NCBI RefSeq assembly: GCF_000019345.1
Contig: NC_010503.1
Span: 690,001-722,000 of the forward strand
Length of the DNA: 32,000 bases
Direction: 5' to 3'
Source of the DNA: Ureaplasma parvum serovar 3 str. ATCC 27815
GTDB taxonomy: Bacteria > Bacillota_I > Bacilli_A > Mycoplasmatales > Mycoplasmoidaceae
This document shows, in pieces, positions 3,092-31,178 of this stretch. The notes under the pieces were generated by a model. That model saw only the letters and a list, made by a program, of their open reading frames with translations, had not been told where the DNA came from and did no database searches. The position numbers and the translations under genes were made by a program. Each line of letters begins with the position of its first letter. Position 1 is the stretch's first letter.

Positions 3092-3109
3092 TTTAAACTC
3101 CTTAATTTA

Positions 3110-6100
3110 CTAAACTGAGAATTGGTTTGAAATTCTAATAATTGTACGATTTTTATCTTTTGTATTTTCGTTTCTTGCATAAACTGGTGAAACAGTATAT
3201 GATTTACCGTTTTCAGCAACATATTTGCGTGAACCTAAAGTCATTAAACTTTTTGGGTTTTTTGGATCACTTAAATCCATAACTTCTTTTAGATCTTTAT
3301 CCACAAAATATATTTCAAATTCACTTCCTTTGGCATTAATTGAATCATAACCAATTAATTGGTTAGTGAAATTAGATAAAATTGCATAATCACTTGTTCA
3401 TGAAACATAACCTTCATCTTCTAATGTTCATTTAGAATTAATGTCTGATTGACGTTTTAGATAAAATAAATTATTTGTATTATCTGTGTGAACATCGATA
3501 TATTCTATTTTGCCATTATTTTTATTTTTTATTGCAATTTTTTTAACTTTATCCTTATATTCTTTTTTAAAGAAACCATACATTAAAATAGAATCTTTTT
3601 CTTTATTTCGATAAATTTGAGCTAATGTTCGATCACCAATACCTTTTGATCTTAATATATATAGTCACATTGCTCGAGCACGATCTGTTACTTTTGTTTT
3701 ATTATCTAATTCCAAAATATTTAAATGATCATCTTTAATTGGTTCACGATTGTCATCATAAATCTCTCAATCAATAATTTTTCTTAATCAACGGTCTTTG
3801 AAAAAACCATTATTTGTTAATCTTGTTTTACCGATATATGAATTAGATTTAGGACTTAAACGTGTTAGAAAAGAATATGAATTCAAATTATTTAAAACAT
3901 CACTATCATGAGTTTTTGTCAATGCTAAAAAGTTAGCATTAGATAAAAAGCTTTCCTTAACTTTATTAAAATTACTTTCTAATTCTTGTGGTTTTGTTAG
4001 ATAATCATCAAATAACTGTTGATTTTTTTGATAAACATTTAAAGCCTGATTTGCTAAAACATTTTGAATTTTTTCGTAATTATTTGTTGCAAATAAGGTA
4101 TTTAATGCGATTGTATTTGATACACTTAAGAAATTATTTACTGGAATTAAACGCTCGTTTCATTGTTTTGTATTATCACCACTAAAGACATATTCATTCC
4201 CTGTATTAAAATCACTTAAACCTGAAATATAATTTGGTAGGTTATCTAACTCATTTTGTGAAGGAATAAATACAGTTTGTACATAATCACGTGTTAATAC
4301 CTCAGCAATATTAAATACATAATCCCCAAAAATTTCGTTTAATTTTTCTTGAACACGTTTTTTATTTAATGTTACATAATCTGATGAAACAACAGTTCCA
4401 TCAGCATTTGGAATTTCAGACGATTGAGAAATCCCAAAAAATGATCCTAATCAACCATAAATATCTTTTGAACCACCAGGTATATCAGTATAAATTGTAA
4501 ATCCAAAAGCATATTGTAATAATTGACCAAAGTTTAAAGTGTTATTCTCACGGTGTTTTCGTTCAATTTCAAGTTGAATTCCTTTAATAATTGAATCAAC
4601 AGTACGTACATTTTTTTGGTTTGGTTTTGCTTTTCAAACATTCTGTGGATTACCAGCAAAATTATATGTATCAAGTGGCTCTCCATATGGTGAGCCTGGT
4701 CTTTCATATTTATTACCAAAACTTCTAAATCCATATAAACCTAGTTTGCCATCAAACACTTGTTTGTATTTATCTAATTCAGATGGGTTAAAATCTTTTG
4801 ATTTATAAAATTTAAAAATATCATTAGATTCTGTAAATCCATCAAATAATAAACCTGTCAGATTTTGTTTAAACTCTTCTAGTGTTAGATTTTTATATGC
4901 TTCTTGTTTTTTTATTACTTCATTGAAAAATTTATCAACATCATAACGTTCTTTTAAATATTCATAATCTCATTTACGAACATTTTCATGACTTGAGCTT
5001 AAAGCATTTTCCACAATTGTATATTTAGCTGGATCCACAGACATAAATTCAATTAAAGAAGGAATATCTTTAAATTTAATTGTGTAGAATTTTGATCCAT
5101 TATTTTCAAGTGTAAGAGGAGTGAATGATCCATTATTTGATTTTAGATAATCAAAATTAATTGCTTGTGCTTCAGCAGGCGTTAAAATCATTAATGGGTA
5201 AATTTCTTTTTCTGTTAATTCGTCAAGCTTTTTTAAATGTTTATTATCTTTTCCATCACCTCTATCAACAATCAACTTAATAGTTCCAAATTCATTTAAA
5301 TTTATCATGCTTTTATTAAATAATTGTTCATATGAAGTAATTTTATTTTGTGTAAGATAGCTAGGACGGATACCAATAATTGATTCAACTGATTCTTTTG
5401 TTTTTGTTCTTAAAATATTTTGATATAGTTCTTTTTCTTTTGGTTTAACAAAATATTTATAACCATTATTACCTTCAATTCCAGCGTCAAAATAATTAAA
5501 TAATGTTGTTTGAGCAACTACATTAACATTTTTAACACCGAAACGATCAAACTGTTTGTCATAATATTTTTTAATTTCTATTAATTCTGGATCAAGTTTG
5601 CTGACTTCTTCTTTAGATTTATTATCTCAAATTTTTGATGCATTGTATTGTAAAGTTAATAAAGCATATTTAAATTGGTCAAAGGTTTTATTTGTAATAT
5701 CTTCGCCAATAATTTGCGAAAGAACTTTTTTATAATATGGAACAGATGATGCATTCGCTTTTTCATCTAATTTTAAAGATTTGCTAATGTTAAAATCAGG
5801 GTATTTAAACATCGCATCAGTAATTCGTTCAGCTCATTTTCGTTTTTCATTTGAAGTAAACATTGGGTGATCAAAATATGTTTTTAAATTAAACATTGAT
5901 GTATCAAAATTACCGTTTTCATCTCAACCACCATTATAGTAATTTTTAACGATTAGGCTATTAATTGAATCTTGTATCTCTCTCACTTTTTCATTAAGTT
6001 TTCTTGTGTTAATTGTCCCATCTGATTTTAAACAAGTTGATAAATCAATTACTGGTGTATTGTTTTTGGTTTTAATTAAAATTTCAATATCATCTTTTTT

Positions 6101-8761
6101 GTATGGATGTTTTTTCTTGTGAAGTTTATAAACAATTGCTCTACCATCTTTACTAAATTTAATTGGTGTTCCCATACCATCTTTTAAAATACCATCATAT
6201 TTTGAAAGTCCTGGTTTTTCAATAACACTACCAAATTTAAAATTATCATTTTTTTGTTCTTGACTATTTTGATCATTATAAAAATAATATTCAGCTTTTA
6301 AACGACTTGGATCTTTAATGTCAGGGCCAAATGATGGGTTAACAGTTGCAGATTCATGATCAAATGAATTCATAATAAATAAATCATATGGTTTAACATT
6401 ACGTAATTTTGCCGCCTCAAATAATTCATCGTATTTTTGTAAAAAACGACGTTTTTTATTATAGAAAAAGGCTTTAGGATCATCAGCATTAACGGAACCA
6501 AAAATATCTTTTTGTGTTTCTCAAACTGGATTTTTAGGATCGTTATTTAATGAAAAATTAAAGAATGACCCATCTTTTGTTGGATTATAATCAACATCAG
6601 TTTTTCTAAAGGTAATTCCGCTAGAACGTGCATTTAAATAATCTTGTAATGCCTTACCATTTACATATGATTCATCACTAACTCCCGATCTAGAATCAAT
6701 TCCTCCACCAATAACTGAATCATTACTATCACTAATATCTTTCATGTCTTGTAATGTTTGGTGATGTCCATATTCGTGTGTACTTACATATTTTAAATAG
6801 TTAATACCTGTTGTTTTAAATGCAGGATCAGATTGAGCAACTAATGATAAATAAGGAATTCGATCAGTTACATAAATACCTTCGTATTCACCATTAACAA
6901 CTTTATATGTATTTTTACCATATTTATCTTGAACAACTTCTGTATGAATACCATTAATTTTTTGTAATAAATGACGATTTTTATTTAAAACCTTATCTAA
7001 TAAACCGCTATATGCATCAACATAAATAGTATAAGTTTTAATAATTTTGCCGTTAACAAATTTACTTCCTTGTTTAATCAAACGAGGTGTAAAAACATCA
7101 AAATAATTAGCCGCAACTTTAAGAGTGTTGAAAGCATCATCAAAACTTGAATCATAATTATAACCTTTTGGATTATTTTTAGGTGATTCTAAAATTAAAT
7201 CTTTATCATCTTTTGTTGTTAAAATTAGTTTATTTAAACCTTCGACTTTTGTTTTAGTAATAGTTACCAATGAAACTTTTTTCTCATCATAGTTAACTAA
7301 TTCAGATTCTAATAATGATTCTTTTGATTTATAAAAATGGGGATTTTTACCATTACCATCAATATCATAAATATAAAATTGTTTATTTTTAAATGTAGAT
7401 TCAACATCATAAACATTTTTAAAATTTTGTTTTTGATCAATATAATCATTAAAATTTTTAGTAATTATTTCACGTAAACTTGATGCTAAAATACTATTAT
7501 CATTTTGAATAAATTCATCATTTGAACTTGATTTAGTAGTGAATTCATCCTTAAACATGTAGTATTTAATTTTTTGTTGTTGGCCACCAATGGTTGCATC
7601 AATTAGTAAATAATTTTGATTACCACTTGATTTACCAATTGATTCAAGATCAAGCGAACCACCAAAAGGAGATGAAGCACTAGCATTAAATTCCAAAAAT
7701 TCATTAATTTTAATTTTATTAATTTCATCCATTTTAACGTCGATTTTAGGATTAAATTTTTTATCTTTTGGAATTAACCCTTTAACAAATTGTAATTCGT
7801 TTAAATATGCTTGTACTTTTTGTTTTGCTTGTTGTTCGTTTTGAGCATAAAAAAGATAATTTAATGTTCGATCACTTGCTTTAAGATTTTTTAAATTAGG
7901 AAAATTTAGTGGATCTTTTGTTAAATCAAAGTACTTATCAGCATTAAATAAATAAGTATTTTTTGCGTTTTTTAGGACATCAATTAATTTAACACCACCA
8001 AAACTATGGCTATTATATGCTGAAATCATTAAAGGAATTTTTTGATGATATTCTTCTAATTCTTCTAATGTCATAGCATCTTTATTAACTTGTCGTGCTA
8101 ATGAATCATAAGCATTGCCGGGGCCAGCATTAATATTATAAATTGGTAATGAACCAAAAAAAGCATCTGGGAAGAATTCAATTACTGTTCTTTCTCTTGT
8201 ACCACTATGTAACCCTAGTGTAATTGCGTTACCATTTTGTTGAATTCCACGACTTAATTTAAATTCTTTCAAAGTCAACAAATCCGGTCCTCAAGAAACA
8301 TTTTTAAAGAATCAATTAGTAAACTCAATGAATTCGTCTGGAGAAATACTATTGATATAATTGTTATTGAAAACAATTGGGCCCACTTCTAATCTTAAAT
8401 TTGGTAAGTTGTTGTTATTTAAATTAACAAAATTATCTAAAAATTCAAGATAAGAAATTTTCTGACCTTTTTTATATTTTCCAAAATCAATTAATAATGT
8501 TACTTGTGTATTATTACCTTTTTTTGCTTTAAAATCATAATCAGCAACTGGTTTGCCAAATTGATCCATTAATAAAGCACGATCTACTTGACGATTAGGA
8601 ATTGTCGTATCAAAACTACTGTTAACTTGTAATGTTTGACGTCCAAGTCCACCAGTAGAAACAGCATATAATTTCATAAAACCAACAACAGCACCAGCAA
8701 ATGCACCAACTGATGCAAAAGCAATTGCAATTTTAGCTGATAATTTTAACCTTTTTTTCAT
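3110..8761 (-). CDS. Giant (1883 aa) membrane-anchored surface protein with PDxFFG motif and HEXXH (HEYGH) motif; function unknown
   Basis: ATG at 8761 with AAGGAG at 8772-8777. The N-terminal TM anchor LSAKIAIAFASVGAFAGAVVGFM has no lipobox Cys. Track ORFs 8312-8761, 6521-8281, 5924-6373, 5627-5812, 4970-5308 and 3110-3304 share one frame. All gaps read by hand gave 15 in-frame TGA and no TAA/TAG before the TAG at 3110-3112. PDAFFG lies at 8153-8170 and HEYGH at 6764-6778. Confidence 0.85.
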
Positions 8762-8779
8762 ATTGCTTTCGCTCCTTTT

Positions 8780-10099
8780 CTAATATTTTCCTGCTTTTCA
8801 ATTAGCAATTTCTTCATCTGTCCCAAGAATATAATGATCGTTTCCTAAATGAATTCATTTTGGTTGTTTTGTTGGTGTATATTCATGCATGTTAGCATCA
8901 TATACATAACCTAATAGTGATTTTTTTTCTGAATCAATTGAAGGTACAGCTTCCATTAGAGAACGTGTGTATGGATGTAAGAAATTATTAACAATTTCTT
9001 TTGTTGGACCAATTTCTAACAACACACCCTTATTCATAACTGCAATTCGATCTGAAATATATTCAACCATTCGTAGATCATGAGCAATAAATAAAATTGT
9101 TAAATCATATTTAGTTTTTAATTCTTTAAAAATATTCACAACTTGAGCTTGAATTGAAACGTCTAAAGCACTAATTGGTTCATCAGCAATTAATAACTTC
9201 GGACGAAGTGCTACAGCTCTTGAAATCCCAATTCGTTGTTGTTGACCACCTGAAAATTCTAATGGATAACGGCGAAGAACGGTTTCATCTAAACCAACTG
9301 ATTTTAAAACATCTAAAATTAAATGGCGCGTGATGTCTGTTCTTGTTTTTGATTTTCAAGTATTAATATCATTAAAAGCTTTTTGTAATTTTTCATCATT
9401 ATTATCTAATGATAAATGATTTAATTCTAATTCATTGAATAATTGGATTAATTCTTGTTGAGCAGTTTCATTTAAATAATCAAACTTTAAATCTTGTGCT
9501 TTTTCTAAAAAAATTTGTACTTGTTCATTATTTAAAAAATTTTTTGCTTTAAGTTCTTTTTTTAATCCTCGTAAATAATCTTTATAAATTAAACGTAAGA
9601 AAGATTTTTTCAAATCTTTAATATTATTTAATCCTTCTGAAACAACTGTTTCAATATTTACATAAGGATTAAGTGAATTCGATGGATCTTGAAAAATCAT
9701 CTGCACATTATTAACCATAAAATCAGTTAGTTCTTTAGTAACTTTCTCACCTTGTTTAGGCAATTTAATACCATCAATAATAATATCCCCAAAACTATGA
9801 CGCGCTAAACCAATTAACGCAGATCCGGTTGTTGATTTACCAGATCCTGATTCACCAACTAATCCTAAAACTTCACCTTGATAAATATTAAATGAAATAT
9901 CTTTAACCGCTCTAAATTTTTTAAATCCATGACCATAAGTAACATCTAAGTGACGTACTTGTACTAAACGCTTTTTTTCAGGATTTGCATTTAATCGTTC
10001 TATTAAACCTTCAGTAACTGGGCGAATAGTAATTTTGTCTGGTAAACAAAAACGTTTTTTGTGATTAAAAAAGGCTTTTTTCTGGTTTGTATCACTCAT
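8780..10099 (-). CDS. oppF: Oligopeptide ABC transporter ATP-binding protein OppF (439 aa) with ~90-aa insertion
   Basis: ATG at 10099 with AAGGAG upstream. Motifs seen: Walker A GESGSGKST, signature FSGGQQQRIGISRA, Walker B LLIADEP, and the C-terminal HPYTRSL oligopeptide-transporter motif. Fragments 9356-10099 and 8855-9139 share a frame, with TGA at 9356, 8855 and 8798. The true stop is TAG at 8780-8782. Confidence 0.9.
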
Positions 10100-10119
10100 A
10101 ATTGATGCTCCTTATTTTA

Positions 10120-11640
10120 TTAATTATTTTCTTGTCGTTTTTTAAAATTATTTCATTTATCTAAAATTATTTGTGGAGGTGTATACTTTTCAGCACGTTC
10201 ATCTAATAATGCTGATTTAACACGATGAGTTTCACTTACATGATACATTTCAGGTTCATGTTCAAAATCACGAGTTAATGCATAATCATTACGAATAGCA
10301 AATGCATCACCAACTATGTCATTTAAACGTGATGGAACAGAACCTTTAATTGTTGCTAAACGATCACCTTTATTAACGTCAGGCATTGACATAATTAAAC
10401 CTCAAGTATATGGATGTTGTGGGTATCATAAAATTTCATCACGCTGACCTTCTTCAATAATTTGTCCAGCATACATAATAGAAATATAATTAGCAATTGA
10501 AGCAACCACTCCAAGATCGTGAGTAATAAAAATAATACACATTTTAAATTTCTCTTGTAACTCACGAATAACATCTAACACTAAAGCTTGCACTGTTGGA
10601 TCAAGCGCTGTTGTTGGTTCGTCTAAAACTAAAATTTTTGGATGTAATGAAACAATTGAGGCAATTACAACTCTTTGAATCATTCCACCAGATAATTCGT
10701 GTGGGTATAATTCCATAATTTCTTCAGGATTATTAATTTTTGTTAATTTTAAATATTCAATTGATTTATTATAGGCTTCTTTTCTTGTCTTAACAATTCC
10801 ATTAATTAACATCCCTTCCATAATTTGCTTACCAATCTTCATGGTTGGATTTAATGTTGACATTGGATTTTGAAAAACTGCAGAAATTACTTTCCCTAAA
10901 TAACGTGATTTCTCTCAATCTTTGAAGCTAAAATCTTGAACTTCATTGTTATATAATAAAATTTTACCTTCTTCAACATTGGCATTTTTTCCAGCCAAAC
11001 CATACAAAAGAGAAGTAATTACTGATTTACCAGATCCTGATTCACCAATAATTGCATGGACTTCACCTTCATAAAATTGAACAGATGTATTTCGTAAAAC
11101 TAAAGCACGATCATTGGGTTTTGATGGGTTTGTAAAAGTTAAACGTACATTTTCGATTTCAGCTGCAATTTTTTTAACTGTACCATCTTTAAAACTTTTA
11201 TATTTAACATTTTTTTCAAATTTTTCAAAATCAAAGTTTTTTCGTGAATTAGCAGCTTTAAAAGCCATTGTTTGTTTTTTATGTTTTTTATTAGCTATTG
11301 TAGTTTCTTTTTGTTCACTAATTTCATTAATACCACTAGCCTGTTCATTAATTAATGTTGTTGCTAAGATTTCTTCATTTAAATTTTGATTTTGATTATT
11401 ATCTTTAACATTAATTTCTTCTTCTAAAGTAACAATATCTTGAATATTAACTTTTTCATTAGTTAATTGTATATTAATGTCTTCTAAATTATTTAATTGT
11501 GGTTCTAAATCCACCTCTTGTTCATTTAAACAAACATTATTTGAAGTTAATTTTAAAATTTGTGGTTTTAATGTTTGAATAAAAGCGCGTTGACTACGAA
11601 GATAGTTAATATAAGTATATCGGTTGTTTTTTTGTTTCAT
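10120..11640 (-). CDS. oppD: Oligopeptide ABC transporter ATP-binding protein OppD (506 aa) with long N-terminal extension
   Basis: ATG at 11640 lies 3 nt after the oppC stop. Motifs seen: Walker A GESGSGKS (11023-11046), signature LSGGMIQR, Walker B ILVLDEPTTALD. Three track fragments share one frame, joined by TGA at 10915, 10426, 10402 and 10153. Stop is TAA at 10120-10122. Confidence 0.9.
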
Positions 11641-11643
11641 AAA

Positions 11644-12642
11644 TTATCTTTGACGTCTTAATGCGTCTTGTGTGGCACCCCCAACTAATTGAATTGAAGC
11701 AACTAAGCAAACTAGTAAAAATGATGGAATTAAAGTAAAACGTGGATATAAAGTAATGATTGATGAACCATCTGCAATTAAATTACCTAAAGTTGGTGTA
11801 TTTGGTAAAGATAAACCAATAAAAGCAAGTGATGATTCAGCTAAAATAGCTCCTGGAATACTAAATACTAATTGAGTAATCATCATTGGAATTAAAATTG
11901 GTAAGAAATTTAAAATAATTTTTCATGCTTTTGTTCCTAATGTTTTTGAAGCTGCAACCCATAAAAAACTACGAGCACGTTTAACTTGTGAACGCATTTG
12001 ATTAGCCATTGCAATTCAACCAGAAAATGAAATAGCAAAAATCATAACTCCAAATGATGGTTTTAAAATAATTGTTAAAATCATTAAAATGATGATTGTT
12101 GGAACGTTTGTTAAAATTTTAATAATGAATGTCATGATTTTATCAAACATTTCAAAATAACCCATTAAAATCCCTAAAGTTACTCCAACTACTAATTCAA
12201 TAGCAGTTACAATAATAGCAATTCCTAATGAATAACGTAATCCTCACCATAGCATGGCTCATAAATCACGCCCATTATTGTCAGTTCCAAAAATAAAACC
12301 ATCTGTAAAATAATCTAAATATCGTTTATTTGGTCGTAATTCTGTTGGTGATCCTGTTGTAAAAGGAATAATAATTGCCAAAATAAATAAAATAATAATA
12401 ATTGCTAATCCGATTAATCCAGAAAAAGAACGTCCGTATCGGTTAGCAAATTCACGAAAAGGACGAGGGCGCCCTCCCATGTATGCATTATCTCTAAACT
12501 CAATTAAATGACCGATAATCTTTCATTGTTGGTGTTGAAAAGGTTGTAAAAACTTATTTGGTGCATCAGATGTTAATTCATCTATAAATGATGAAGTAAT
12601 ACTTTTTGATTTTTGTTTTAAATATTCTCCAAACTTCGCCAT
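11644..12642 (-). CDS. oppC: Oligopeptide ABC transporter permease OppC (332 aa)
   Basis: ATG at 12642 lies 4 nt after the oppB stop, extending the track ORF 54 codons upstream through one TGA. The OppC/DppC-type N-terminal motif GTDNNGRDLW is present, followed by multi-TM sequence. Gaps are joined only by TGA (12259, 12244, 12016, 11926). Stop is TAA at 11644-11646. Confidence 0.88.
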
Positions 12643-12646
12643 AAAT

Positions 12647-13780
12647 TTATTTTCCTCCTCTTCTTATACGTGGATCAATAATTTGATATAAAGCATCTCG
12701 AATTGTATAACCAATAATTGTAATTAATGAATAAATAATTACTAATAATAAAATCACGTTGTAATCTTTTGAGATAATTGCTTCAAAAAATAATGAACCT
12801 GAACCTGGAATTTGAAAAATTTGTTCAATAAACAACGCTCCAACAAATGATCCTAAAATTACAAATGGAAAGAATGTTGCAATTGGGAATAATGATGGTT
12901 TTAAAGCATGTAATCACACAAAACGGTTAACAGTTGCACCTTTTAAATACGCAAATTTCGCATGCATTGAGTTTAATTCACGATTCATTTCAACTTTAAT
13001 ATATTGCACATAAACAATAATTGAACCAAGTGATAATGCTAACCCTGGTAAAATATAAGTCACAAAATTATTAATATCAAACGTAAATGGTAATCCAACT
13101 TCTTTACCAATTAATAACAAGATTAACCCAAATACAAGCGAAGGTACAGCTGAAATTACAGAAATAATAACGGTTGATACACTATCTAATATACCTCCTG
13201 GTTTACGCCCAACAAAAATACCTAAAGGGATTCCAATAACTAGAGTTAATAATACTGAAAAAATTCCAACAGCAAAACTTACTAAATAACGAGATCAAAT
13301 AAATGAATTAATTTCAACCCCTGGGCGAATTGAAGTACTTACTCCAAATTCTCCTCTAAAAATATTTGCTAAATAATTAACATAACGAACGCCTATTGGA
13401 CGATCTAAACCATACTGTGCTAGAATGGCTTTTTTCGCTTCTGGTGATGTAATCCCGATCGTTAAAGCAGATTCTCCAGGTACTGAGTTAATTAAAAAGA
13501 ATGTAATTGTAATTACAATTCAAGCTAATAAGAAAAATTCAGCAATTAATTTCAAAGATTTAATAATAAATGTCATAAACTTTGAATCAAAAGTGAAAAA
13601 ATCGATTAATGGATCAACAACACGATCGCGATCTGCTGCTGTTTTTAGTGAACGACCACCACCAAAAATAATAAAATTATTACTAAATGAATAATTAACT
13701 CGTTTTTTTTGGTTTAATATTGGCAATTCACCATAATTGTTTTGCGATGAATTAGCTTCAAAGCTGTTTTTCTGATTCAT
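12647..13780 (-). CDS. oppB: Oligopeptide ABC transporter permease OppB (377 aa)
   Basis: ATG at 13780 with AGGAG upstream. The C-terminal IIDPRIRRGGK is typical of OppB/DppB. Fragments 13520-13780, 12914-13120 and 12647-12835 share a frame, joined by TGA at 13520, 13294 and 12914. Stop is TAA at 12647-12649. Confidence 0.88.
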
Positions 13781-13794
13781 ATAAATCTCCTATT

Positions 13795-14235
13795 TTAAGT
13801 AATTGATTGTGTGGTTTTAATAATATAAGCAATCATACAAGCTAATGCATAAATAAAACTAGGTAAAATGATAATTGTAATTAAAATATTTAAGCGAATT
13901 GTGGCATAATCAATAGATCGTAATTCATATTTAGCATTGATATAAAAACGATCAACTAATTTCATTTCTCACGAACTAAGTTTATACTCATTATATTTTC
14001 TTAATTTAACTGCTCAACGGCGACGATAAACTTGGCGCGAGAAGATAATATATAAGAAAACTACCATAAAGATACATGTATAAGCTATAAAAACATTCAT
14101 ACGGTATTGGTGATAATCTTTAATTAATTCAACAATTAAGTGACTAATAACCATCAATATTAATAATGCAATTAAAACAATAATGCTTTTATAATTTAAT
14201 AAACGATTCGGAAACGATTGTTTTTTTATACTCAT
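13795..14235 (-). CDS. Hypothetical small membrane protein (146 aa, ~3 TM)
   Basis: ATG at 14235 with AAAGGAG upstream. The track ORF 14014-14235 continues through TGA at 14014 and 13969 to TAA at 13795-13797. Hydrophobic segments include IIVLIALLILMVISHLIV, VFIAYTCIFMVVFLYIIF and LITIIILPSFIYALACMIAYII. It sits 14 nt upstream of oppB. Confidence 0.6.
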
Positions 14236-14269
14236 TATTATTTAATAATTACTCCTTTTCTTAATAACT

Positions 14270-15463
14270 TTAATGACAAAAACCATCAGCATGGCAATGA
14301 TGAATACTACCTGGTTTTTTAGGTTCAAGTGTTAAATCAAAATAACTATACATACTATAAATAACATACATTCCTTTAATTAGAGCATTATTGTTTTTTT
14401 GCCCCTGAATTAGAAGATTTTCATATAAATTATCTAAATACTCTTTATTTGTTTTTAAATTAAAAGGTGTAATTTTTTTACCATTCTTTTTAATGAATGT
14501 TGGTGCTAAAAATGCAATTGGTGAAAAGTAAAAATCATCTAATTTATTATTTCAAATATTGGTATAAACAAGATCACGTTCGGGTTTAATAGATGTTTGT
14601 GCAGGACGATCAACAATAAAAATTTGTTTTAAAACAAGATCATTTAAATTAAATAATTTAACATCGTTATCAATATTTAAATCATTAATTTTACTAATCA
14701 TATAACGGACTTTGTTTTGATTATCATCGGTTGGTATAGCTTGTTTAACTCAACGATATAAACTACCACCAGTTATTGTATATCCTTCATAATGTTCTTT
14801 GCTATCTGGATATTTAATAATCGAATGATAAATTTTGACATTTGAATAATTAATTTGCATGCTAATAGCTTCATTAAAATAATCAATTATTGCTTTTTTT
14901 GAACCAAATCAAAAACGTTTAATTTTCTTAGTAAAGTGATAATCATCATTTCTCACTTTTTTGTCAGGTGGAATTGGCTCATAAAATTGAGGTTTAGTTT
15001 GTATATTAATATCACCAATGTCATCAATAACTAAGCCTAATTTATAATTAATATCAAAAGTACCATTATTTGAATTTTTATCTGTATTGTAAATTAAACT
15101 AAAATCATTTAACTTAACATGATATTTTGCATTATATAAATTTAGTAAAGCAAAATTATAAGAATAATATAAATACAAGGAGCGTTTAATTGTTTGATCA
15201 AAATAATCTTTTAAACTCTCATAGAGGTTTAGAAAAATTTTAGTTTCTTTATTTTGAGATTGATTTAATATTTGTTTTTCATTTGCAAGATTAATATTAT
15301 TATTTGTGATTGATTGAAACTTGATTTGCGTATCTTGATTAATTGTTACTTTTTTAGATTTTTTTGTTGAACAACTAGTTAATAAAACTAAACTAATAAT
15401 AGTTGTTAATAATATACTAATAAAGATTATTAATCTTGCTTTGAGATTACTTTTTGTTTTCAT
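14270..15463 (-). CDS. Lipoprotein (397 aa) of unknown function ending in a His/Cys cluster HHCHADGFCH
   Basis: ATG at 15463. Signal peptide with lipobox (LVLLTS|C). The track ORF 14909-15463 continues through TGA at 14909, 14750 and 14552. All codons were read and the first real stop is TAA at 14270-14272. The terminal HHCHADGFCH is encoded at 14273-14302. Confidence 0.75.
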
Positions 15464-21877: not shown

Positions 21878-24800
21878 TTAAAAATTATTTTGTTGCCATA
21901 AAACATAATCAATTTTATTATTGTTATTATTTGATGATAACGAATCATTAATTCGTGACACAATTTTATGTTTATCAATATATCATTCATACTCTTTAAT
22001 TCTGTAAGTTGAATAACCTCGATCTTCTAAAAAATATTGTCGATCAATATCCTCAAACATAATCTGAACACTACGGTTTTCTTTTCAAGTTTCTAGTAGA
22101 ATTGTTTTTACAATTTCTTTAGTTTCTTTTTTAATAATTACTAAATCAATTTTTTTAGTACCAATGTTTCAATTTGGAAAGATTTGGTATTTATTTGATA
22201 ATTTTTTTGTTAGTTCGCTATAGATTTCTTTAACTAAATCATTATCAAATTCTAAATATGTTTGTTGTTCTAAACTTTCAAGTGAATCATTAATACTTAA
22301 TTGACCATTAATTCGATCAACATATTCAATAAAGCGTTTAAATGTCAGTGCATTTTGATTATTAAGATTTGAAACTTGAATTTGATGACCATAAAGTGAT
22401 TTTATAACAATCATTTTTTTACGTGCACGAGTGATCGCTACATTTAAACGATTCATTCCGCCCTTAGCATTAAGTGGTCCAAAATTATTACGTAAATTTC
22501 CTTCAGGATTTGGGCCATAAGCAATTGATAAAATAACTAAATCACCTTCGTTACCCTGAACATTTTCAAGATTAGTTATCACAATTTCATTATTTTCAAT
22601 TTTGTCACACAATCCCTTTTCAAATATATTCATTCGTTCAAAAAGTAGGTTTTCAACTAGACTAGCTTGTATAGCATTAAATGTTACAATTAAGATTTTT
22701 TCATATTTTTTTCAATTATCAATTAATGTTGCAATTGTTTGTTCTGCTTCTAATGGATTACCTTTTTCTCAAACTCCATTAACATTAATAACGTCAATTC
22801 CTTTTTCAAAAGCACCTTGGCGTGTGGCTACTTCTAGATTATTGTTATAAATGTATTTATTTGAAAACTCGATTAACTCTTTTGAATCAGAACGATAATG
22901 ATTTTTTAAATGATATTCATTTCATCATGAAGTTTTAGCACGTTCTAATAAAGAATCTACTTTATCAAAATCATCAATTTCAAAGTCACTATCAGCTAAC
23001 TTATTAATAAAGAATGATGTTGGCTTTAATTGTTTATCATCACCAGAGACAACTTTAGTTTTACAACGATACACAATAGGATATGATCGTTCAATTGTCA
23101 TTTGGGATGCTTCATCAAAAATTCCATAATCAAATTCATTCTCAACTAATGGAATTAAAGATGCAACATTATCTGGACGCGCAACCCAAATCGGAAATAA
23201 ACGTTTTAAAGCAGTGTAATATTTAGATAAATAACGTGAAATTGATGGTCAAGAACGTGATGAAGCAATTCGTAATGCGTTAGTAATTTCATCTTTTTCT
23301 TGTTGAGGTAGTTTTGTTAAATAATTTCTTAAATTATTAATATATTTTTTAAAAACAATTTCACCAACAATTTTAGCGGAGCGCATTGATTCACGTCTTA
23401 ATTGAATAATAATATCTTGCAATAAACGCCCTTTAGTTTCAGAAAACATTGGAATTATATGTGTAATTTCATCTCATAAAACAATCACTTTTAATTTCTT
23501 AAATTGATCGTGCGTGATTAATGTTGAAACATGTTTCATAATTTTACCAATCTTTTCAAGATCAAATAAAATTAATGGTTCTAAATACAGCGTTTTAATA
23601 TATGGTAAAGATAATCATGATCATTCACGAATAATATCTTGCATTGTTGGTGTATAAATTTCAGCAAGCGTATGTAATTTTGACAAAAAATCAACATCCT
23701 GGTTGATAAATTCACGATACGAAGCAATTTGGTCCATTTTTGGTTTAGATAAATATTCAATATTATTTAAAAAATCTATGAATAATTCAATTACTTCTTG
23801 ACTATCACGATTGCGTGTTTTAATTTCTTTTAAACTTAATGATGATTCATCGCTTGGGTCAGCGTTAGTAATAATTGTACCGTTACTAATAAATTCAGCA
23901 AAAATAATTTGTTTGTTTTCATCACTTGCATTATTATAAATTGATAAAAATGCTGAAATACGATCTTTGTTTTTAATTAGAAAACTAAATCATTCATTTT
24001 TGGCTAATAATTTTTTGTGTTTTGTAAAAAAATTATCACATAAATCAATAATTTCATTTAGTTCTTGTGTTGTTTTTGATTGCAAACTAAAATCTTTATC
24101 TATCACATCTTTACGGAACTTTAAATAATCACCAATTTTGTCTATAAAAATACGTTTATCACGAATTGATTTATTCATAAAAATAGTGTTCGATTCAAGA
24201 TTATGTTCAGCTAAAAAGTTGTAATAATTATCAATGTCTTTGGTGATTCTATTAGCATGCATCAAAAATTTTGTCACTAATTCATCATTGGTTTGAATTT
24301 TATTGGTAATCATTTTTAAATGTTTTAAAATTTCTATAGAACTATAATTATCTGTTAGCTTATATTTTTTAATAAAAGAAGTAAATCTTAGATAAGCTGT
24401 AAATAAATCTTCAATTTTTAACAAATTGTATTCATTAAAAATAGTGCTGATCTCTTCAAATAATGTTGTTCGTTTTTCATTTTCTTCATTAAATTGTTGG
24501 GGAGTTAATCATTCTTTAACAATTTGTTCTCCTAATTCATTTTTGGTAGCCACATAATCAGCATAGTCCATTTTATAAATGCCATCATTATAATCTTCTA
24601 TACTCCAGTGTTTTTTAACTAATTGTAGTAATTCAGAATTTCAATCCTCATAATTTTTAAAAAACATTGATTCCTCTGGAGTAAATTTAATTGGTTCTAT
24701 TTCTTTAATCTTTGTAGAACGAGATTGTTCACGATACCATTGTGTACCTAATAAATCATTTAAATTAGAAATTTTTTCAAAAAAAGTTTCTTTGTTTGTT

Positions 24801-25981
24801 AAATCATAAACATATAAAGCAAATTGTGAAAGCGAACCTATTCTTTCTGTTAATACATCTAAAGCCGCACGTTTTTCTGATACTAATAAACTACTTTTTC
24901 CTTTTAATAAAACATTAAAGATAATATTTGCAATTACTTCAGACTTTCCTGTTCCAGGAGGTCCATAAATCAAAGTATTTTGTGAAAGTGATGATGCAAC
25001 AGCATATTTTTGAAAAATATTTAGAGGACGTCCAATTTCCACCACCATTTGTTCTTTAATTACTTTATCTTCATAATATTCAACTGGTTTATTCAAACCA
25101 TCGTTTTCTGATTCAAATGGATCAACATCCATTTCAATAATTTTATGTAAATCAGCTTTTAAAGCGCCCCCATCGGGTTCGAATAACCCCAGTACAGCTG
25201 ATGGTTCAATTTCAAAAGTTGTATATCGATCTAAAATTTGTGTCTCATTTTCGTTCATGAAAGGAACAAATTCGTTTTCGTTAATATTAATTTTTTGACC
25301 TGTCATATCTTCAATCATTTTAATAGTTGAAGACAATTCATAATTAGTCAACAATTCTGTTGTTTCAACCTTAAAATCTTGATAACCTTTTTTTAAAAAG
25401 ATTTGGATTTTTTCATTAACAATTGGCTCATCTTGAATTTTAGCGATAAAAATTTTATCAGCTTCTTCTCGAATTTCAACTTTAAATAAAGTTAATGGTG
25501 ATTTAAAAGGATCGTTTGGTAATAATTTTCCTTTCAAAAAATTAAAAGTAAAGTAAAGAGGTCAAACAGTTGTATCTTCAAAATAATTTTTTGCTAGTCT
25601 ATTAATAGAAATAAACTTTTTTCTAAATGCTAACAATTGTTCAATTGCTAAAGGAATAATTTTTTTCTTATTTGCATGAAAATCACGTTGTAGTAAATTA
25701 ATTTTATTATCTGCTAAATTTACATTGTAATTTACTAAGATTTCTAAAAATTCACCAATATTTAAAGCATTTTTTAAACTTTCTTCAAATAAATTTAAAT
25801 TCTTACCTACATTTAATTCAACATAACTAATTTCGCCATTAACAAAACTAATTAGATCTTCTTTTTTAATATACTTAAATAAGTCTATATTTCTTGATGA
25901 TGAAAGTCTTGTTAAAATAATTGAATCATGCGGATTTAAATTAACAAGATTCATCAATTTTTGTTTAATCGCTTTTTTCAT
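21878..25981 (-). CDS. 1367-aa Upf1-like SF1B helicase (DUF4011-like N-terminus, AAA_11/AAA_12 core) with C-terminal DUF559/Vsr-like nuclease-fold domain
   Basis: Five track ORFs (25562-25981, 24641-25537, 23990-24424, 23249-23449, 22169-22633) share one frame. I read all gaps and found at least 15 in-frame TGA and no TAA/TAG until TAA at 21878-21880. Motifs seen: Walker A GPPGTGKS (24941-24964), motif II DEASQ (23102-23116) and VAITRAR (22421-22441). The N-terminus has DUF4011-like LSSSRN..LF and SPLTLFKVEI stretches. The C-terminal tail reads IDLVIIKKE..ILLETWKE..RQYFLEDRGYSTYRI. Confidence 0.85.
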
Positions 25982-26176
25982 ACTTGTGGATACCTCGTTT
26001 TTTATAATATGATTATTTTAACTAAAAATAAGAAAGTTTTAATATCAAATTATTTATCTTATTTGTGCTAATATAATTCATATTTTTAATCTACATTTAA
26101 AAAATAACTTTGTTATAAAGTTGTATAATTATATAACATACAAATTAAATGGATTAAGTAAGCAAACTAAATTTAT
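25982..26176. promoter_or_regulatory. Divergent control region between the helicase and the KAP-like gene
   Basis: This 195-bp AT-rich spacer has plus-strand candidates TGcTAATAT (26066-26074, extended -10) and TATAAT (26124-26129). The minus-strand candidate is TATTAT followed by GAGGT upstream of the helicase ATG. No -35 is convincing. Confidence 0.4.
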
Positions 26177-27913
26177 ATGAGAAATAATTTATCTGATTTG
26201 GAAATCGAAAAATTGACCAAAACATTAGTATCAAAAAACAAAAGAGTTGTAGCTTTATATGGCGTTCCCGAAAACACTTCTTATAAACTAATGAACGATC
26301 TAATTAGTTTAATGGATGTAGAAATTCCTAATTGATCATCAATTTCAAGCGCAACTGAAGACCAATGTATTAATGATATTAAAAATTTTTTACTGTCAAA
26401 TGCAAGTTTAGAAAACTTTAAAAACTTGCCTTCTAATAACCCTTTAATTAATTGGTGGAAAAGACGCCGTTTAAATACTGTTGTTAAAAAGATTGAAGAA
26501 ATCAACTCAGCGTTCGCAGACCGTGAAATAACATCTCGTTCAAAAATCTTTTTGATGCCTGTTTTAACAGCATTTAGTACTTTAGGAACTACACTAGCTG
26601 TTCCTTTAATATCTGTTACTTTTTTACGGGGTGATGCAATTATTAATTTGTGGGGTAAAGATGGATATATTGCTTTCTTAAGTTTACTATTTTCTTTAGT
26701 TGTTGCTGTTATTATTTCAGCTTTTGTCGCTTTATTTAGTAGTTTAAAAAATAATAAACGTAATTATATTGTTTCAAACATGACCAAAGGTCTTAAAAGA
26801 ATATATGATAAATATTTTATCGAAAGTAATTCTCAAGAAAAGATTAATGCTAAAGTAACTTTTTATTCACGCTTTTTAGAACGTTCTAAATTCGTTGTTC
26901 AAAATAATTACACATTTTTTTATGATGTTGTAGATATTAATAGTGATCAATATCCTAAAATATTAAAATATTTCAAAACCTTAAACCAATTAAATAATAC
27001 AGTAATCTTCGATGCTAGTGGTTTTAAATATTTAGACGAACGTAAAATTTTCCGTAACATTATCGATTTAGAGAAAACAAATGTTGTCCGTTTGGATCGT
27101 TATAAAACAAAAACAAGCGGACGTCGCTTAATGAGTTTTATTTTCTATCAATTATCAATCATTGCTAATGTTAATACACGAAAACTTTTACAAAAATTTC
27201 CTTTCTTTGTCAACTCTTTATATCGTTTTTTAGATTACAGCGAAAAAAATACTGAGTTATTAACACTTTTATTAGACATTAAAAAACACGCTTCAAAAAC
27301 AGAAATTCCATTAAACGATGAATCACAATTATTTTTTGTAGACTTTTTTACATTCGTGGTTTTTAAAGCTTTGGATGAATTAGGATTTGAGACGCTAATG
27401 AATGATTTAACAGTCTATGGTCGTCCATCTGAAATCACTAAGAAAAATATAACTTATAATTCATTAAAATTGGATTACATCATTAATCGTAATGCGCGTA
27501 ATTTTGGACAACAAGCATTATTGTTTAACTTATTAGATTATTTTGATGAGACAGTAAATAAAAATATCTTTAACGAATTAGGAAATAGTAATAAAAACAT
27601 GATTTTTTCTAAAAATCATCAATTAAATTTAGCCAATGAAGCTTTAAGTAAAAAAGGTTTTACAAAGCGTGAAATTGATTTAAATAATCATTGATATGAT
27701 GCTTTATATTCTAATCTTCATGATGATGAAGACATGTTTGTTAAAATTATTGAAATTAAAGATAATGTTGATATCTTAAATGTATTAGATGAACTCTTTG
27801 TTCGTGCTCAAAATGATGGTGTTAAAAATTTATTAATTTATGTTTTTAATGTAAAAATGTTATATTCATTAATAGATAATGAATACGAGTTGGTTAATGA
27901 GTCAATTATTTAA
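26177..27913 (+). CDS. 578-aa membrane protein with KAP-NTPase-like topology but degenerate Walker motifs; function unknown
   Basis: ATG at 26177 with TAA two codons upstream in frame. The ORF extends the track ORF 26426-27694 at both ends through TGA at 26333 and 27692, ending at TAA 27911-27913. An N-terminal strand-loop-helix RVVALYGVPENTSYKLMNDL sits where a P-loop would be (26261-26281). A TM hairpin lies at ~26546-26746. The Walker-B-like VIFDASGFKYLDE lies at 27002-27022. Confidence 0.55.
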
Positions 27914-27977
27914 TACTTAATATATAAGTTTTTAAATTTAATTATTTTATTTAAAATAATAGGAGTAAAATAAAACG

Positions 27978-29264
27978 ATGACAAATGATGAGCGTAAAGA
28001 ATTTATTAGAAAAAATAAAATTATTTATTTTAATCGAATTCGTTACTTTTTTTATGAATGAACAGATATGAAAGCATATCAACGCATGTTAGTGCCTGAA
28101 ACTTTTTTCTCATTTTTTTATCAATTATTCGTCTTAATGATTGCTTTTTGTTCCGTTACAATTATTATTTATAATCAAATTGAATTAAAACAAGCTAATG
28201 AAGAGCACATAGACTTTATTGCTAAATATTTTGAAGTTTATTATGCTTTTAATATTTTTTTTATTATTGATTATTTAATTCGTATTTCATACGCTGATTA
28301 CACATACAATTCAATTTCAAGACTAAAGGCTTTTTTAATAGCACCATTTCGTTTTGTTAATTTATTGGATCTAGTATCTTTTGTAGCAATTGTTATCATT
28401 TATAATACAGGATTATTAGATTTTGTAGCAAAAATGAATGAAACAACTTCATATTCACAAAAATTTGATTATTATTATCAAATCATCAATAATAATGCTT
28501 ATATGAATGTTGTTCCTTGTATGTTTTTAATTAAAATCTTAGGTGCGCATTCTAAAATTATCAAAAATGTTATTTTGAGTAGTGAAGTTAATTTCTTTTG
28601 ACAAATTTTTAAACGGCGTTGACGTGTATTATTATCATCATTCTTAATTTTAGTTTTATTTACTTTTCTATTAAGTTTTATTATTTATAGAATTGAACAA
28701 AATTATTATGAAATAAAGCATATTTTGCCTGGTAATCCGTTGTACAAACTTAAAAATTTTGGTGAAACTTTGTGGTTTTCTATGGGAACAATTACCACGA
28801 TAGCTTATGGTGATGTTACACCTGTTTCTCCAGCTGGTAAAGTATTTGCCGTTATTTTAGGTGTAATTGGTGTTACCTATTATGGTTTTCTGACTTCATT
28901 ATTTGCTTCAGCTTTAATTTCAGTAATTAATGAATTTGGTAAACGCCGTGATAGCCGTAGATTGTTAGAATTTCAAAATGAAAACGAGCGATTATTGCAT
29001 GAATTTTCTGAGCAAATTAAAGTAGATATTGTCCAAGAATTAATTAAAAATAATGTTATTCAGGATCCAGAAGAAATTAAACGAATTGAAGATCTTCAAA
29101 ATCAAGAACGTGAAGCTTTAAAAATGAAAGCGAAACGCCGAAAGAAAATTTATTTTAGTGATGATTTATTTGATGATACAAAACGAATTAGTGTTTCAAA
29201 CGTCAAAGTACGTAGTGCTTCAAATGTAACAAAAGTATTAGGTCGATCATCAACAAAAAAATAA
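27978..29264 (+). CDS. 6TM voltage-gated-like potassium channel family protein (428 aa), filter TTIAYGD
   Basis: ATG at 27978 with AGGAG at 27961-27965. Track ORFs 28068-28601 and 28725-29264 share a frame, joined by TGA at 28059, 28599 and 28620. The layout is S1-S6 with a weakly charged S4 (FLIKILGAHSKIIK). The pore reads LWFSMGTITTIAYGDVTP, with the filter at 28794-28814. Stop is TAA at 29262-29264. Confidence 0.85.
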
Positions 29265-29266
29265 TT

Positions 29267-29297
29267 AAAAACCTGCAAGGTTAAATTGCTGGTTTTT
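29267..29297. terminator. Bidirectional terminator shared by the convergent K+ channel and ATP-grasp genes
   Basis: Arms AAAAACCTGCAA/TTGCTGGTTTTT (one mismatch) with a 7-nt loop, flanked by A and T runs. It sits between the stops at 29264 and 29302. Confidence 0.7.
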
Positions 29298-29301
29298 AAT
29301 T

Positions 29302-30219
29302 TTATTTTCAATATTTACCTCACTCAATGTCTTTTTGTTTTCACTGAGGATCATCTCAAAAAGTAAAAAAAGCGTTTGATGTGTTAAAAGTAATTTCACC
29401 AATATACAAGCGATGATCAACATAATAAAAATCAATACGAAAGTGTTTAAAATCATTTTTTAAAACTTCATAAATTTTTTGGCAAACATCTTTTATTTCA
29501 CTAAAGTCAAAATTAATTATTTCATGATTTAAAATTGATTTATTATTTTTTAAATCAAAAATATTACTTTTTAAAAAATCCCAATTTCAATTATTTTTTT
29601 CAATTTCATCCTTATTCATATATAAACAAAATTGCTCTTGTGCAAAACAAAATATTTTATAATCAGCAACGAGTGTTTGTTTTCCTAATAAAGGTTCAAT
29701 AAGTACTTGTGGTTTAATTTGTGAATAACATCATGTTTCATAAAAATTACGTGGATGATTAATTTTTTTATTAAGCAAGATGTTATTAAAATGAGTTATT
29801 ATTTGTGTTAATTCTGCTTGTGAAGTAGTTTCACGAATAATATATAAATCTTCATTTTCAGTGCTATTATTCAATTTAATAATATAAGGTTTAGGGAACT
29901 TATTAAGATCTAATAAAGTAATTTGATTTTGACGATTAAAAATTGCTAAAGTTGGAACTTGATATTGATATAATCGATGTTTTATTAATCATTTTTTAAA
30001 ACTTATTTTATCGACAATTTCTAAAATTTTCGATTGATCTGTATTTAAATACATATAAAGTAGTTTTTCATTATAAGTTTTTGGGTCTTGCAAATTCGGA
30101 GTATAACCCATTGTTTTGCTTCATATATTTATTAAAGATTTTTTAAATTGATTACGATCATTTTTATAATATAATCTTGTAATTTCATTTAATTCTTTAA
30201 TTAATTTATCAGTTATCAT
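29302..30219 (-). CDS. TupA-like ATP-grasp fold amidoligase family protein (305 aa)
   Basis: This gene is absent from the ORF track because it has 8 in-frame TGA. I read all 306 codons from ATG 30219 to TAA 29302-29304. The sequence pattern matches the TupA-like ATP-grasp family (PKTYNEKLLYMYL, YIIKLNNST, WCYSQIKPQVLIEPLL, DYKIFCF, FRIDFYYVDHRLYIGEITFN). Confidence 0.75.
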
Positions 30220-30224
30220 ATTTT

Positions 30225-31178
30225 TTATTCCTTGATTAAAACATTAACTCTCTTAGTAATTATTTTAGGAGCATATGATAATTTTGAAGCACTTATATTA
30301 TCAGACCACGCCCCATCTTGTCGATCTATCAATCAATTATTAATATTATTAATTATTAAATTTTGTGATAATAAATATTGATACATACCTCTAATTTCAC
30401 GATCTGTTTGCTCAATAAGAATTTCTGCAATATTTGGACGAGTATAAACTAATGTAAATCCAACTATTTTATTTATTGATTTTTTTATTAAAAGTGATCC
30501 CATAAAATAAGGATTAGTTTGTGTGTTTAATAACAAATCAGAATTAGAATTAACTAGCATTCTTTTTGAATTAATAAAATTTTTAACATCTCATTCTTTT
30601 AAGAAAGTGCAAACCTCATGTAAATGAAATTTAGGATTATACTTAATAATTTCATAATCATTTTTAAAATTTTTAATAAAAAAATTAAGATTATTACGCT
30701 TTTTTTGTAGAATTTTTCCACAAAAGTATTTTAATGATTGCGTTTCATAAATAAAATTTGAATATCAACTATAAATTAATTCAAAATTAAATTGAGATAA
30801 ATTATTTAAATAATTTTCATCTTGTATTCCATTAATTGCTAATAAAAATTCTTTTTTAAAATTTGTTTTTAATGCTTCTAAAGCAATTGGAATCAATGTT
30901 GTTCAATCATATTTTTTTGCATCAAAATAAGCGAATATAATAAAAAATTTGCCAATAAACTGTGTTGCAATTTTATTTTGTTCAATTATCTTTAATTCTT
31001 CATTTGCTTGTGCATAAAATAGAACAATATTTTTATCTTTTAAATACTCAAAATAAATATCATAACCATAATAAGTTCATAATAATAATGTCAAGGTCGA
31101 AATTTGTTGTCCAGGATTAATATCTTCTTTTATTTGCTCAACAAATTCATAATTATTTCATGTTAGTTTTGTATACAT
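30225..31178 (-). CDS. DUF2156 domain protein (MprF C-terminal / aminoacyl-lipid synthase-like GNAT fold), 317 aa, no TM domain
   Basis: ATG at 31178 with TAA two codons upstream. There are 6 in-frame TGA, and I read all codons to TAA at 30225-30227. DUF2156-like motifs are present (QKKRNNLNFFIKNF, EQTDREIRGMYQYLL, SASKLSYAPK). The stop is 5 nt from the ATP-grasp ATG, with AAGGAA in the 3' end. Confidence 0.65.

Follow-up and report, generated by a model that had tools for sequence, protein, structure and literature searches.

In 32,000 nucleotides of DNA from Ureaplasma parvum serovar 3 str. ATCC 27815 (contig NC_010503.1, positions 690,001 to 722,000; hereafter the window), 7.4 kb are occupied by three genes that encode a helicase-nuclease, a transmembrane (TM) protein and a channel. 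We conclude with moderate confidence that these 7.4 kb hold two independent units, i.e., an autonomous helicase-nuclease and a separate two-gene operon for the channel and a pore-linked TM pseudo-enzyme. With a helicase-nuclease, a KAP-like membrane protein and a channel side by side, the locus resembles a defence island, however, the comparative context says otherwise. The first-pass annotation had suggested that the three products could form one sensing/effector unit, which is not supported in view of the unlinked orthologues of the helicase and the absence of a Zorya model match. It had also allowed that the genes could be unrelated neighbours, and this second option is supported for the helicase but not for the TM-channel pair.

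In the proposed arrangement, the helicase-nuclease would act alone on nucleic acid and be vertically inherited, like the single-gene proteins Hhe, ProA and PDC-S37; its autonomy is suggested by the fact that PDC-S37, Hhe and ProA are single-protein models, and its role in Mollicutes may be foreign-DNA restriction or genome maintenance. The TM and channel genes would be co-transcribed as a two-gene operon, as the earlier annotation had thought probable, and in support of this their adjacency is conserved across Ureaplasma lineages, the spacer between them contains no terminator, and a strong terminator follows the channel gene. The TM protein would be a pseudo-enzyme whose ancestor was a membrane-inserted P-loop NTPase of the Tmn/YobI or KAP type of layout; residing in the membrane, it would assist or regulate proteins of the K+-pore superfamily, namely the six-TM channel in Ureaplasma and the TrkH transporter in related lineages. 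By analogy with mutant channels, the TTIAYGD filter predicts a low conductance and possibly a relaxed K+/Na+ selectivity. Gene content, domain architecture, motif decay, adjacency patterns and terminator placement, from which this arrangement is built, are direct observations.

Open reading frames (ORFs) were called with genetic code 4, in which TGA encodes Trp; table 11 breaks every gene into fragments. The helicase-nuclease gene occupies 21878-25981 on the minus strand (1367 aa), and the TM protein gene (26177-27913, 578 aa) and the channel gene (27978-29264, 428 aa) both lie on the plus strand. These three ORFs, the 195-bp divergent intergenic region between the helicase and TM genes (25982-26176), the 64-nt spacer between the TM and channel genes, and the bidirectional terminator beyond the channel gene were all found where the first reading of the window had placed them. 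The GC content is ~25% across the window, with fractions of 0.245-0.271 in the three genes and 0.206-0.283 in the flanks, i.e., there is no island signal in base composition.

Gene order in Ureaplasma and other Mollicutes

Gene neighbourhoods were compared in four Ureaplasma lineages besides the window and in six other lineages with a member of the TM protein family. All three genes are present in every Ureaplasma species sampled. In U. parvum, U. canigenitalium, U. diversum and U. miroungigenitalium, the TM gene and the channel gene are immediate neighbours that point in the same direction, 11-64 nt apart, and in the fifth lineage both proteins are encoded on one 4.7-kb contig, which implies adjacency. 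The helicase gene completes a contiguous trio in the first three of these species; in two of them, U. canigenitalium and U. diversum, the divergent region measures ~179 bp. Its position differs in U. miroungigenitalium, where it lies 3' of the ATP-synthase operon and shares the strand of the TM gene, which is found 10.8 kb further downstream. Nine housekeeping genes (hprK, lgt, trxB, whiA, psuG, pfkB, nrdFIE) intervene, and the TM and channel genes are still only 12 nt apart. This arrangement demonstrates that the helicase is separable, and that the TM-channel junction is the conserved one.

Full-length helicase orthologues (~51% identity) in Metamycoplasmataceae metagenome-assembled genomes (MAGs) reside between pyrG and ruvX-alaS or between gatCAB and rplJL, and neither a TM nor a channel gene is found near the helicase in those loci. 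A neighbourhood search had been proposed in the first-pass annotation, with unlinked orthologues named in advance as evidence against a common unit; the outcome is that the helicase is unlinked and that the TM-channel pair stays adjacent. The rnj gene of U. canigenitalium is located elsewhere, in a separate locus without the trio (the RNase J contig search matched only U. canigenitalium), and the trio is therefore not tied to rnj. The trio locus of U. canigenitalium (L002) carries Tsp45I and Eco47II-type restriction-modification genes and a Lit-domain gene on one side (1-5620) and a DUF2779 gene on the other (13054-15135), which is the sole defence-island-like context seen.

Outside Ureaplasma, the TM-family gene lies directly 3' of a TrkH gene in two MAGs. 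The order is FtsX-domain protein, TrkH, TM gene (55-nt gap) and lipoprotein in one of them (P0136, locus L015, 5257-8785), and rpmE, TrkH, TM gene (16-nt gap) and ffh in the other (P0140, locus L017, 1012-4396). TrkH precedes the TM gene on the same strand in both loci, which have different flanks, and neither TrkH-TM pair has a KtrA/TrkA gene next to it. Read from the translations, the TrkH sequences bear the expected glycine P-loop motifs. In a third MAG (P0135, locus L014), three genes separate the TM gene from a channel homolog (25% identity) that is encoded 1.7 kb upstream; the TM proteins of L015 and L017 are ~28-35% identical to the TM protein of this lineage. In the clade that has lost Walker A, the TM family thus repeatedly adjoins some K+-pore-superfamily protein. 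The position of the TM gene directly 3' of TrkH in two distant relatives suggests that the family is linked to K+-pore proteins rather than to nucleic-acid sensing, and no helicase was found near the TM-family members of the six lineages outside Ureaplasma.

The gap 3' of the L015 TM gene was considered as a site for a hidden channel and rejected, as it encodes the lipoprotein. In L017, DUF3800, HNH_2 and N6_N4 methyltransferase genes (5737-8719) follow just 3' of ffh, ~1.3 kb from the TM-family gene, and may represent a small restriction or defence cluster.

The three other lineages have different neighbours. The order is ligA, TM gene, a protein with three TM segments and rpmE in Mycoplasma pneumoniae (L012); SpoU methylase, TM gene and ruvX in M. 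cavipharyngis (L013); and AhpC, TM gene and ackA in a MAG (L016). The product of the gene after mpn358 in L012 (7835-8611) is 258 aa long, contains three predicted TM segments and lacks a Pfam match, and rpmE, which is next to this gene, likewise adjoins the TrkH-TM pair in L017. MPN359, for which three TM segments are predicted, was considered as a cryptic channel and rejected, as it is not similar to the Ureaplasma channel.

Several observations weigh against a division into an autonomous helicase-nuclease and a pore-linked TM protein. The trio is together in three Ureaplasma species although both flanks differ, and some selective linkage of the helicase to the TM-channel pair may exist; in U. 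canigenitalium, moreover, the trio sits among restriction-modification genes and a Lit-domain gene. No K+ gene is found beside the TM gene in M. pneumoniae, M. cavipharyngis and L016, which confines any K+-pore coupling to one clade, and the TrkH pairings may derive from one ancestral arrangement instead of independent events. Finally, mpn358 is the most transposon-tolerant gene in transposon sequencing of M. pneumoniae (PMC7515713), and since it is freely disrupted, the TM family is without an important role in vitro.

The first two of these points would also speak for a single Zorya-like module, in which helicase-nuclease, TM protein and channel act together in membrane-coupled nucleic-acid surveillance or defence, as would the matches of defence models to the helicase and the layout of the TM protein, which is that of the membrane defence NTPase Tmn. 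We nevertheless regard such a module as very improbable, given that in U. miroungigenitalium 10.8 kb separate the helicase from the pair, that in other Mollicutes the helicase stands alone, that TM-family genes elsewhere have no helicase neighbour, that no Zorya model matches any of the three proteins, that the TM protein has neither a Walker A motif nor a nuclease triad, and that the trio genes occur in all sampled Ureaplasma species without compositional anomaly. A three-gene surveillance module is not supported, although it keeps a small probability within the Ureaplasma species in which the trio is together.

In another reading, all three genes are functionally unrelated, the TM-channel adjacency being inherited synteny in one genus, with a channel for ordinary cation homeostasis and a TM protein that has another role or none. 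Adjacency to the channel is limited to Ureaplasma, three lineages have no K+ neighbour, mpn358 is dispensable, and compact Mollicute genomes commonly have short intergenic gaps. We consider this reading rather unlikely, although clearly not negligible: in two further lineages the TM family is paired with TrkH, which lies on the opposite side of the TM gene and amid different flanks, a channel homolog is 1.7 kb away in a third (L014), and the TM-channel junction has outlived the rearrangement that removed the helicase in U. miroungigenitalium. A rough, uncomputed estimate puts the chance of an immediate K+-pore neighbour at ~1% per gene in a ~700-gene genome. We prefer the assignment of the 7.4 kb to two independent units, which is examined below at the level of the individual proteins.

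The helicase-nuclease

In the helicase-nuclease, an N-terminal DUF4011 domain precedes a superfamily 1 (SF1) helicase core, which is interrupted by an insert of ~600 aa, and the C-terminal end is formed by an MTES_1575 domain of the restriction-endonuclease-like kind; the Pfam E-values are 2.3e-15 for AAA_12, 1.2e-12 for AAA_11, 3.2e-10 for MTES_1575 and 1.3e-09 for DUF4011. A motif scan locates the Walker A sequence GPPGTGKS at aa 340-347 (24941-24964, minus strand), and the remaining helicase motifs are intact, i.e., DEAS (in IFDEASQM), GDDKQL (aa 980), VQGNE (aa 1141) and VAITRA (aa 1181). The MTES_1575 nuclease domain, which is of the PD-(D/E)xK type, corresponds to aa 1251-1347 (21941-22231, minus strand), and the match spans profile positions 3-95 of 96.

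PADLOC matches to PDC-S37 (7.1e-90) and Hhe (2.5e-46) bear out the earlier identification of the protein as a helicase-nuclease with kinship to defence helicases. NCBIfam scores are 329 bits for ProA, against a cut-off of 1500, and 215 bits for Hhe, against a cut-off of 2000. Judged by these profile scores, the protein is best regarded as a relative of the single-gene helicase-nuclease defence proteins and an equivalog of none.

Full-length orthologues are present in every Ureaplasma species sampled and, with ~50% identity, in many Metamycoplasmataceae and Mycoplasma MAGs. The identity to other Ureaplasma species is 66-75%, compared with 62% for RNase J and 58% for TrmD; the TM protein and the channel reach 43-58% and 45-48%, respectively. 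Phages and true plasmids yielded no close copy of the helicase; Mollicute records of 0.4-1 Mb that are labelled "plasmid" are chromosomes. The distribution of the helicase-nuclease is thus unlike that of a variable or sporadic defence gene, and it behaves like a core Mollicute gene. Published contexts agree with a conserved yet dispensable chromosomal DUF4011 gene: an integrative and conjugative element sits within the M. hominis DUF4011 gene, such that disruption of the orthologue is tolerated (PMC12228374), and in P. aeruginosa a defence hotspot is bordered by a large DUF4011 gene that belongs to the core genes (PMC10250203). Because the helicase-nuclease is core-like, automated defence annotation of minimal genomes with Hhe or PDC-S37 needs care.

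Outside the window, U. urealyticum encodes a second DUF4011/AAA_11/AAA_12 protein (P0085, 1285 aa) that has no nuclease-domain match and aligns with 44% identity over about one third of the query; only a 106-aa partial sequence in its cluster comes from U. parvum.

The TM protein and its family

Homologs and their alignment place the TM protein in the unannotated MG255/MPN358 family of pneumoniae-group mycoplasmas. A word-based search finds homologs only in Ureaplasma, and an exhaustive profile search adds ~20 distant full-length relatives, among them M. pneumoniae MPN358 ("MG255 homolog") and proteins of M. amphoriforme and M. cavipharyngis. An alignment of 24 family members (A2) was the basis for an AlphaFold model and for the column analyses. 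None of the 24 members matches a Pfam, PADLOC or NCBIfam model, PDB sequence-profile searches with the family return nothing meaningful, a metagenome scan with a five-sequence alignment of the family yields no relatives, and no phage or plasmid copy of the TM gene was found. All members found stem from pneumoniae-group mycoplasmas or Mollicute-like MAGs.

Distant relatives were needed for a good model: with six Ureaplasma sequences, the predicted local distance difference test score (pLDDT) was 47 and the model unusable, compared with a pLDDT of 85.7 and a predicted TM-score (pTM) of 0.76 for the 24-sequence alignment. The model begins with a strand (24-28), a loop and a helix (35-46), followed by a long helical hairpin with TM1 and TM2, and continues with strands 246-251, 275-279 and 301-305 alternating with helices, a helical domain (331-470) and an alpha/beta domain (479-575). 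According to this model, the TM protein has a P-loop-NTPase-like fold that has decayed, and two membrane helices form a hairpin placed ahead of the putative Walker-B strand (FFYD). The "pseudo-KAP" designation in the first-pass annotation stands as regards architecture, with a degenerate Walker A and a TM hairpin in a P-loop-like fold; no match to PF07693 was obtained.

The column analysis places the degenerate Walker A sequence, GVPENTSYK, at aa 29-37 (26261-26287, plus strand), where strand 24-28 gives way to helix 35-46. The sole fully canonical Walker A motif among the 24 members is GLAETGKT, in the M. cavipharyngis homolog. Lys followed by Ser/Thr is kept in 13 of the 24, and the Lys is lost in Ureaplasma and its nearest relatives; Asp of the putative Walker B strand is present in half of the members (12/24).

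Hydropathy and the model assign the membrane hairpin to 26540-26752 (plus strand), its two helices being TM1 (aa 122-150) and TM2 (aa 161-192). Conservation within the family is highest in TM1, where the majority fraction is 0.61 as compared with 0.32-0.46 in the soluble domains; TM1 carries the motif P-I-L-T-T-x-S-T-x-G-T-S-L-G-V-P-L-L-S, in which P128, G137, P143 and S146 are invariant.

Foldseek gives no significant whole-chain match for the model. Weak matches (probability 0.1-0.4) to AAA+ clamp-loader and ORC folds involve the first ~330 alignment columns. Matches to the archaeal Holliday-junction resolvase Hjc (1gef, 2wcz, 2eo0) have probabilities of 0.87-0.98, but E-values of 0.08-0.27 and target-normalised TM-scores of 0.37-0.45; they cover ~105 columns and were placed on the C-terminal alpha/beta domain from its secondary structure. 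This domain with a possible Hjc-like fold (aa 479-575; 27611-27901, plus strand; Foldseek and column analysis), which would be the alpha-beta-beta-beta-alpha-beta fold of PD-(D/E)xK nucleases, contains neither the conserved catalytic residues D...(D/E)xK nor an invariant residue. D517 is acidic in 20 of the 24 members, the column of K523 holds Lys or Arg in 13 and E571 is acidic in 18, and no acidic residue is found two positions before K523.

The same features invite a comparison with abortive infection. The TM protein might be a relic or an active form of a Tmn-like protein that perturbs the ion balance alone, the K+-pore neighbours being coincidental or sharing a membrane-stress regulation. 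As in Tmn, a two-TM hairpin within a P-loop-like fold precedes a helical region, TM1 is highly conserved, Walker A is kept in distant members, and dispensability in culture is usual for defence genes. This explanation appears improbable, however, since none of the 24 members is matched by PADLOC, Pfam or NCBIfam, Walker A mutations abolish Tmn defence while Ureaplasma lacks the Walker A Lys, and the members are confined to pneumoniae-group mycoplasmas and Mollicute-like MAGs without a plasmid copy, whereas defence genes are patchy.

Returning to two units with a pore-linked TM protein, we tentatively advance a more specific proposal, which on present evidence is doubtful: the MG255/MPN358 family may be a decayed Tmn/YobI-like membrane NTPase that a Mycoplasmoidaceae clade recruited as a membrane-embedded accessory or gating subunit of K+-pore-superfamily proteins, i.e., of TrkH in some lineages and of the six-TM channel with the AYG filter in Ureaplasma. 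If true, the recruited protein would be a K+-transport regulator of a new type, with its origin in a defence-type scaffold. This is the first structural and contextual reading of the MG255/MPN358 family, which has no Pfam or NCBIfam match and is kept in minimal genomes, even in M. pneumoniae and, judging by its name, in M. genitalium; its link to K+ transport is testable.

The channel and transcription signals

The channel is a 428-aa protein of the six-TM type and the K+-channel superfamily, and has a charged C-terminal tail. It matches Ion_trans_2 (8.8e-16) and Ion_trans (4.7e-08) in Pfam, and the pores of KvLm and KcsA in PDB sequence searches. Its pore filter, TITTIAYGD (28788-28814, plus strand), has Ala in place of the first Gly of GYG. 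The substitution is found in all seven Ureaplasma orthologues, which thus carry T-I-A-Y-G instead of the canonical selectivity filter T-[VI]-G-[YF]-G, and the nearest outgroup has TITTIGYGD.

Promoter-like matches around the divergent region (25982-26176) are not above chance, with 66 found and 63.9 expected in the scanned region. The TM-channel spacer (27914-27977, plus strand, 64 nt) contains a ribosome-binding site, AGGAG at 27961-27965, 12 nt 5' of the channel ATG, and no terminator; its structure is not significant (minimum free energy -6.1 kcal/mol, z = -0.65), and 48 of 200 shuffled sequences fold as well. A bidirectional intrinsic-terminator hairpin (29263-29301) is common to the channel gene and the convergent gene 29302-30219, and is bordered by the stop codons of both, that of the channel lying at 29264. 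Its stability is -14.5 and -13.6 kcal/mol on the two strands (z = -4.2 and -4.4), none of 200 shuffled sequences is as stable, and a U-tract follows 3' of the hairpin on either strand. Within the TM ORF, a short GC-rich palindrome, AAGCGGACGTCGCTT (27114-27130), scores terminator-like on both strands; it is probably a chance occurrence, since two such elements were found in the region and 1.6 are expected in shuffled sequences.

Neighbouring genes in the window

Two genes on the minus strand (29302-31178) lie between the channel gene and rpsI. One encodes a TupA-like ATP-grasp protein (2.5e-12), and the other has a weak likeness, below the cut-off, to the C-terminal domain of phosphatidylglycerol lysyltransferase (0.0034); such a pair is unexpected for a wall-less organism. 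At the other end of the window (1-15463, minus strand), the translations indicate two predicted surface proteins or lipoproteins of very large size (1030+ aa and 1883 aa) and, after them, an apparent ABC transporter, probably of the oligopeptide type, with two ATPases and two permeases.

Comparison with known systems

The Zorya system combines a ZorAB proton-channel motor with ZorC/D, and the sole likeness to the present locus is an ion-conducting membrane part encoded beside a helicase/nuclease. No ZorA, ZorB, ZorC or ZorD model in PADLOC matches any of the three proteins, and the membrane genes and the helicase are separable here. Mokosh pairs the helicase MkoA, which has an RNA-helicase N-terminal region, with an MkoB/PLD nuclease; the helicase-nuclease matches MkoA (8.5e-18, PADLOC), with the best stretch restricted to the generic SF1 C-terminal core (aa 1094-1227), and there is no PLD gene in the locus.

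The closest counterparts of the helicase-nuclease are the single-gene DUF4011 helicase-nuclease anti-phage proteins Hhe, ProA and PDC-S37 (PADLOC PDLC02194 and PDLC05009; NCBIfam NF042953 and NF058533). The domain order is the same, i.e., DUF4011, SF1 helicase (AAA_11/AAA_12) and a C-terminal REase-like domain, and the profile matches are strong (7e-90, 2.5e-46 and 5.7e-98). The U. parvum protein has 1367 aa, however, compared with 1550-1911 positions in the profiles, and the best-scoring stretch of each match comprises only the C-terminal third of the protein. A further difference is that it is located among housekeeping neighbours, with core-like conservation, and not in variable islands. 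A literature search for PDC-S37, and for ProA together with Hhe, found nothing, and ProA is known here by its NCBIfam name alone.

The TM protein shares with Tmn/YobI and KAP proteins a pair of membrane helices that interrupts the P-loop-type alpha/beta domain after the Walker A helix and ahead of the Walker B strand, with a helical region further on; for KAP, the likeness of layout is judged by the title of Aravind et al. 2004, as cited in PMC13001434. Tmn has two TM helices inside its P-loop domain and a helical C-terminal region, forms a decameric pore and exports Mg2+, and its defence activity is abolished by mutations in Walker A (PMC13001434). The TM protein differs in that no sequence model matches its 24 family members, KAP_NTPase (PF07693) included, for which there is no match at E <= 1 in any member, in that the Ureaplasma clade no longer has the Walker A Lys, and in its extra C-terminal domain, which is putatively Hjc-like. 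The family is also limited to pneumoniae-group mycoplasmas and related MAGs.

KtrAB and TrkAH combine a pore with a cytoplasmic nucleotide-binding regulator, and in operons of this kind the regulator gene often adjoins the pore gene. The position of the TM-family gene directly beside TrkH in L015 and L017 recalls this arrangement. The likeness is one of analogy only, in that the TM protein is not an RCK/KTN protein, is membrane-embedded, and in the L015 and L017 lineages is without a functional nucleotide-binding motif.

The channel and the KcsA/KvLm-type channels have in common an Ion_trans_2 pore with the motif T-x-T-T-x-x-Y-G-D, and the Ureaplasma channel differs by having neither an RCK nor another recognisable cytoplasmic gating domain. 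Its Ala residue is located exactly at the position of G77 in the KcsA G77A mutant (PDB code 6nfu), with the difference that in Ureaplasma the residue is natural and genus-wide. In KcsA, G77A removes the S3 site and lowers the conductance ~32-fold, while the effect on selectivity is disputed, and mutants of the equivalent Gly in BK, GIRK2 and Shaker lose selectivity (PMC11251424). In the light of these mutants, the AYG filter calls for a wider reading of the "K+ channel" label, and by this analogy the protein should preferably be named a K+-channel-superfamily cation channel. The genus-wide AYG filter represents a natural experiment, which reproduces the very mutation used in the debate on the mechanism of K+ permeation.

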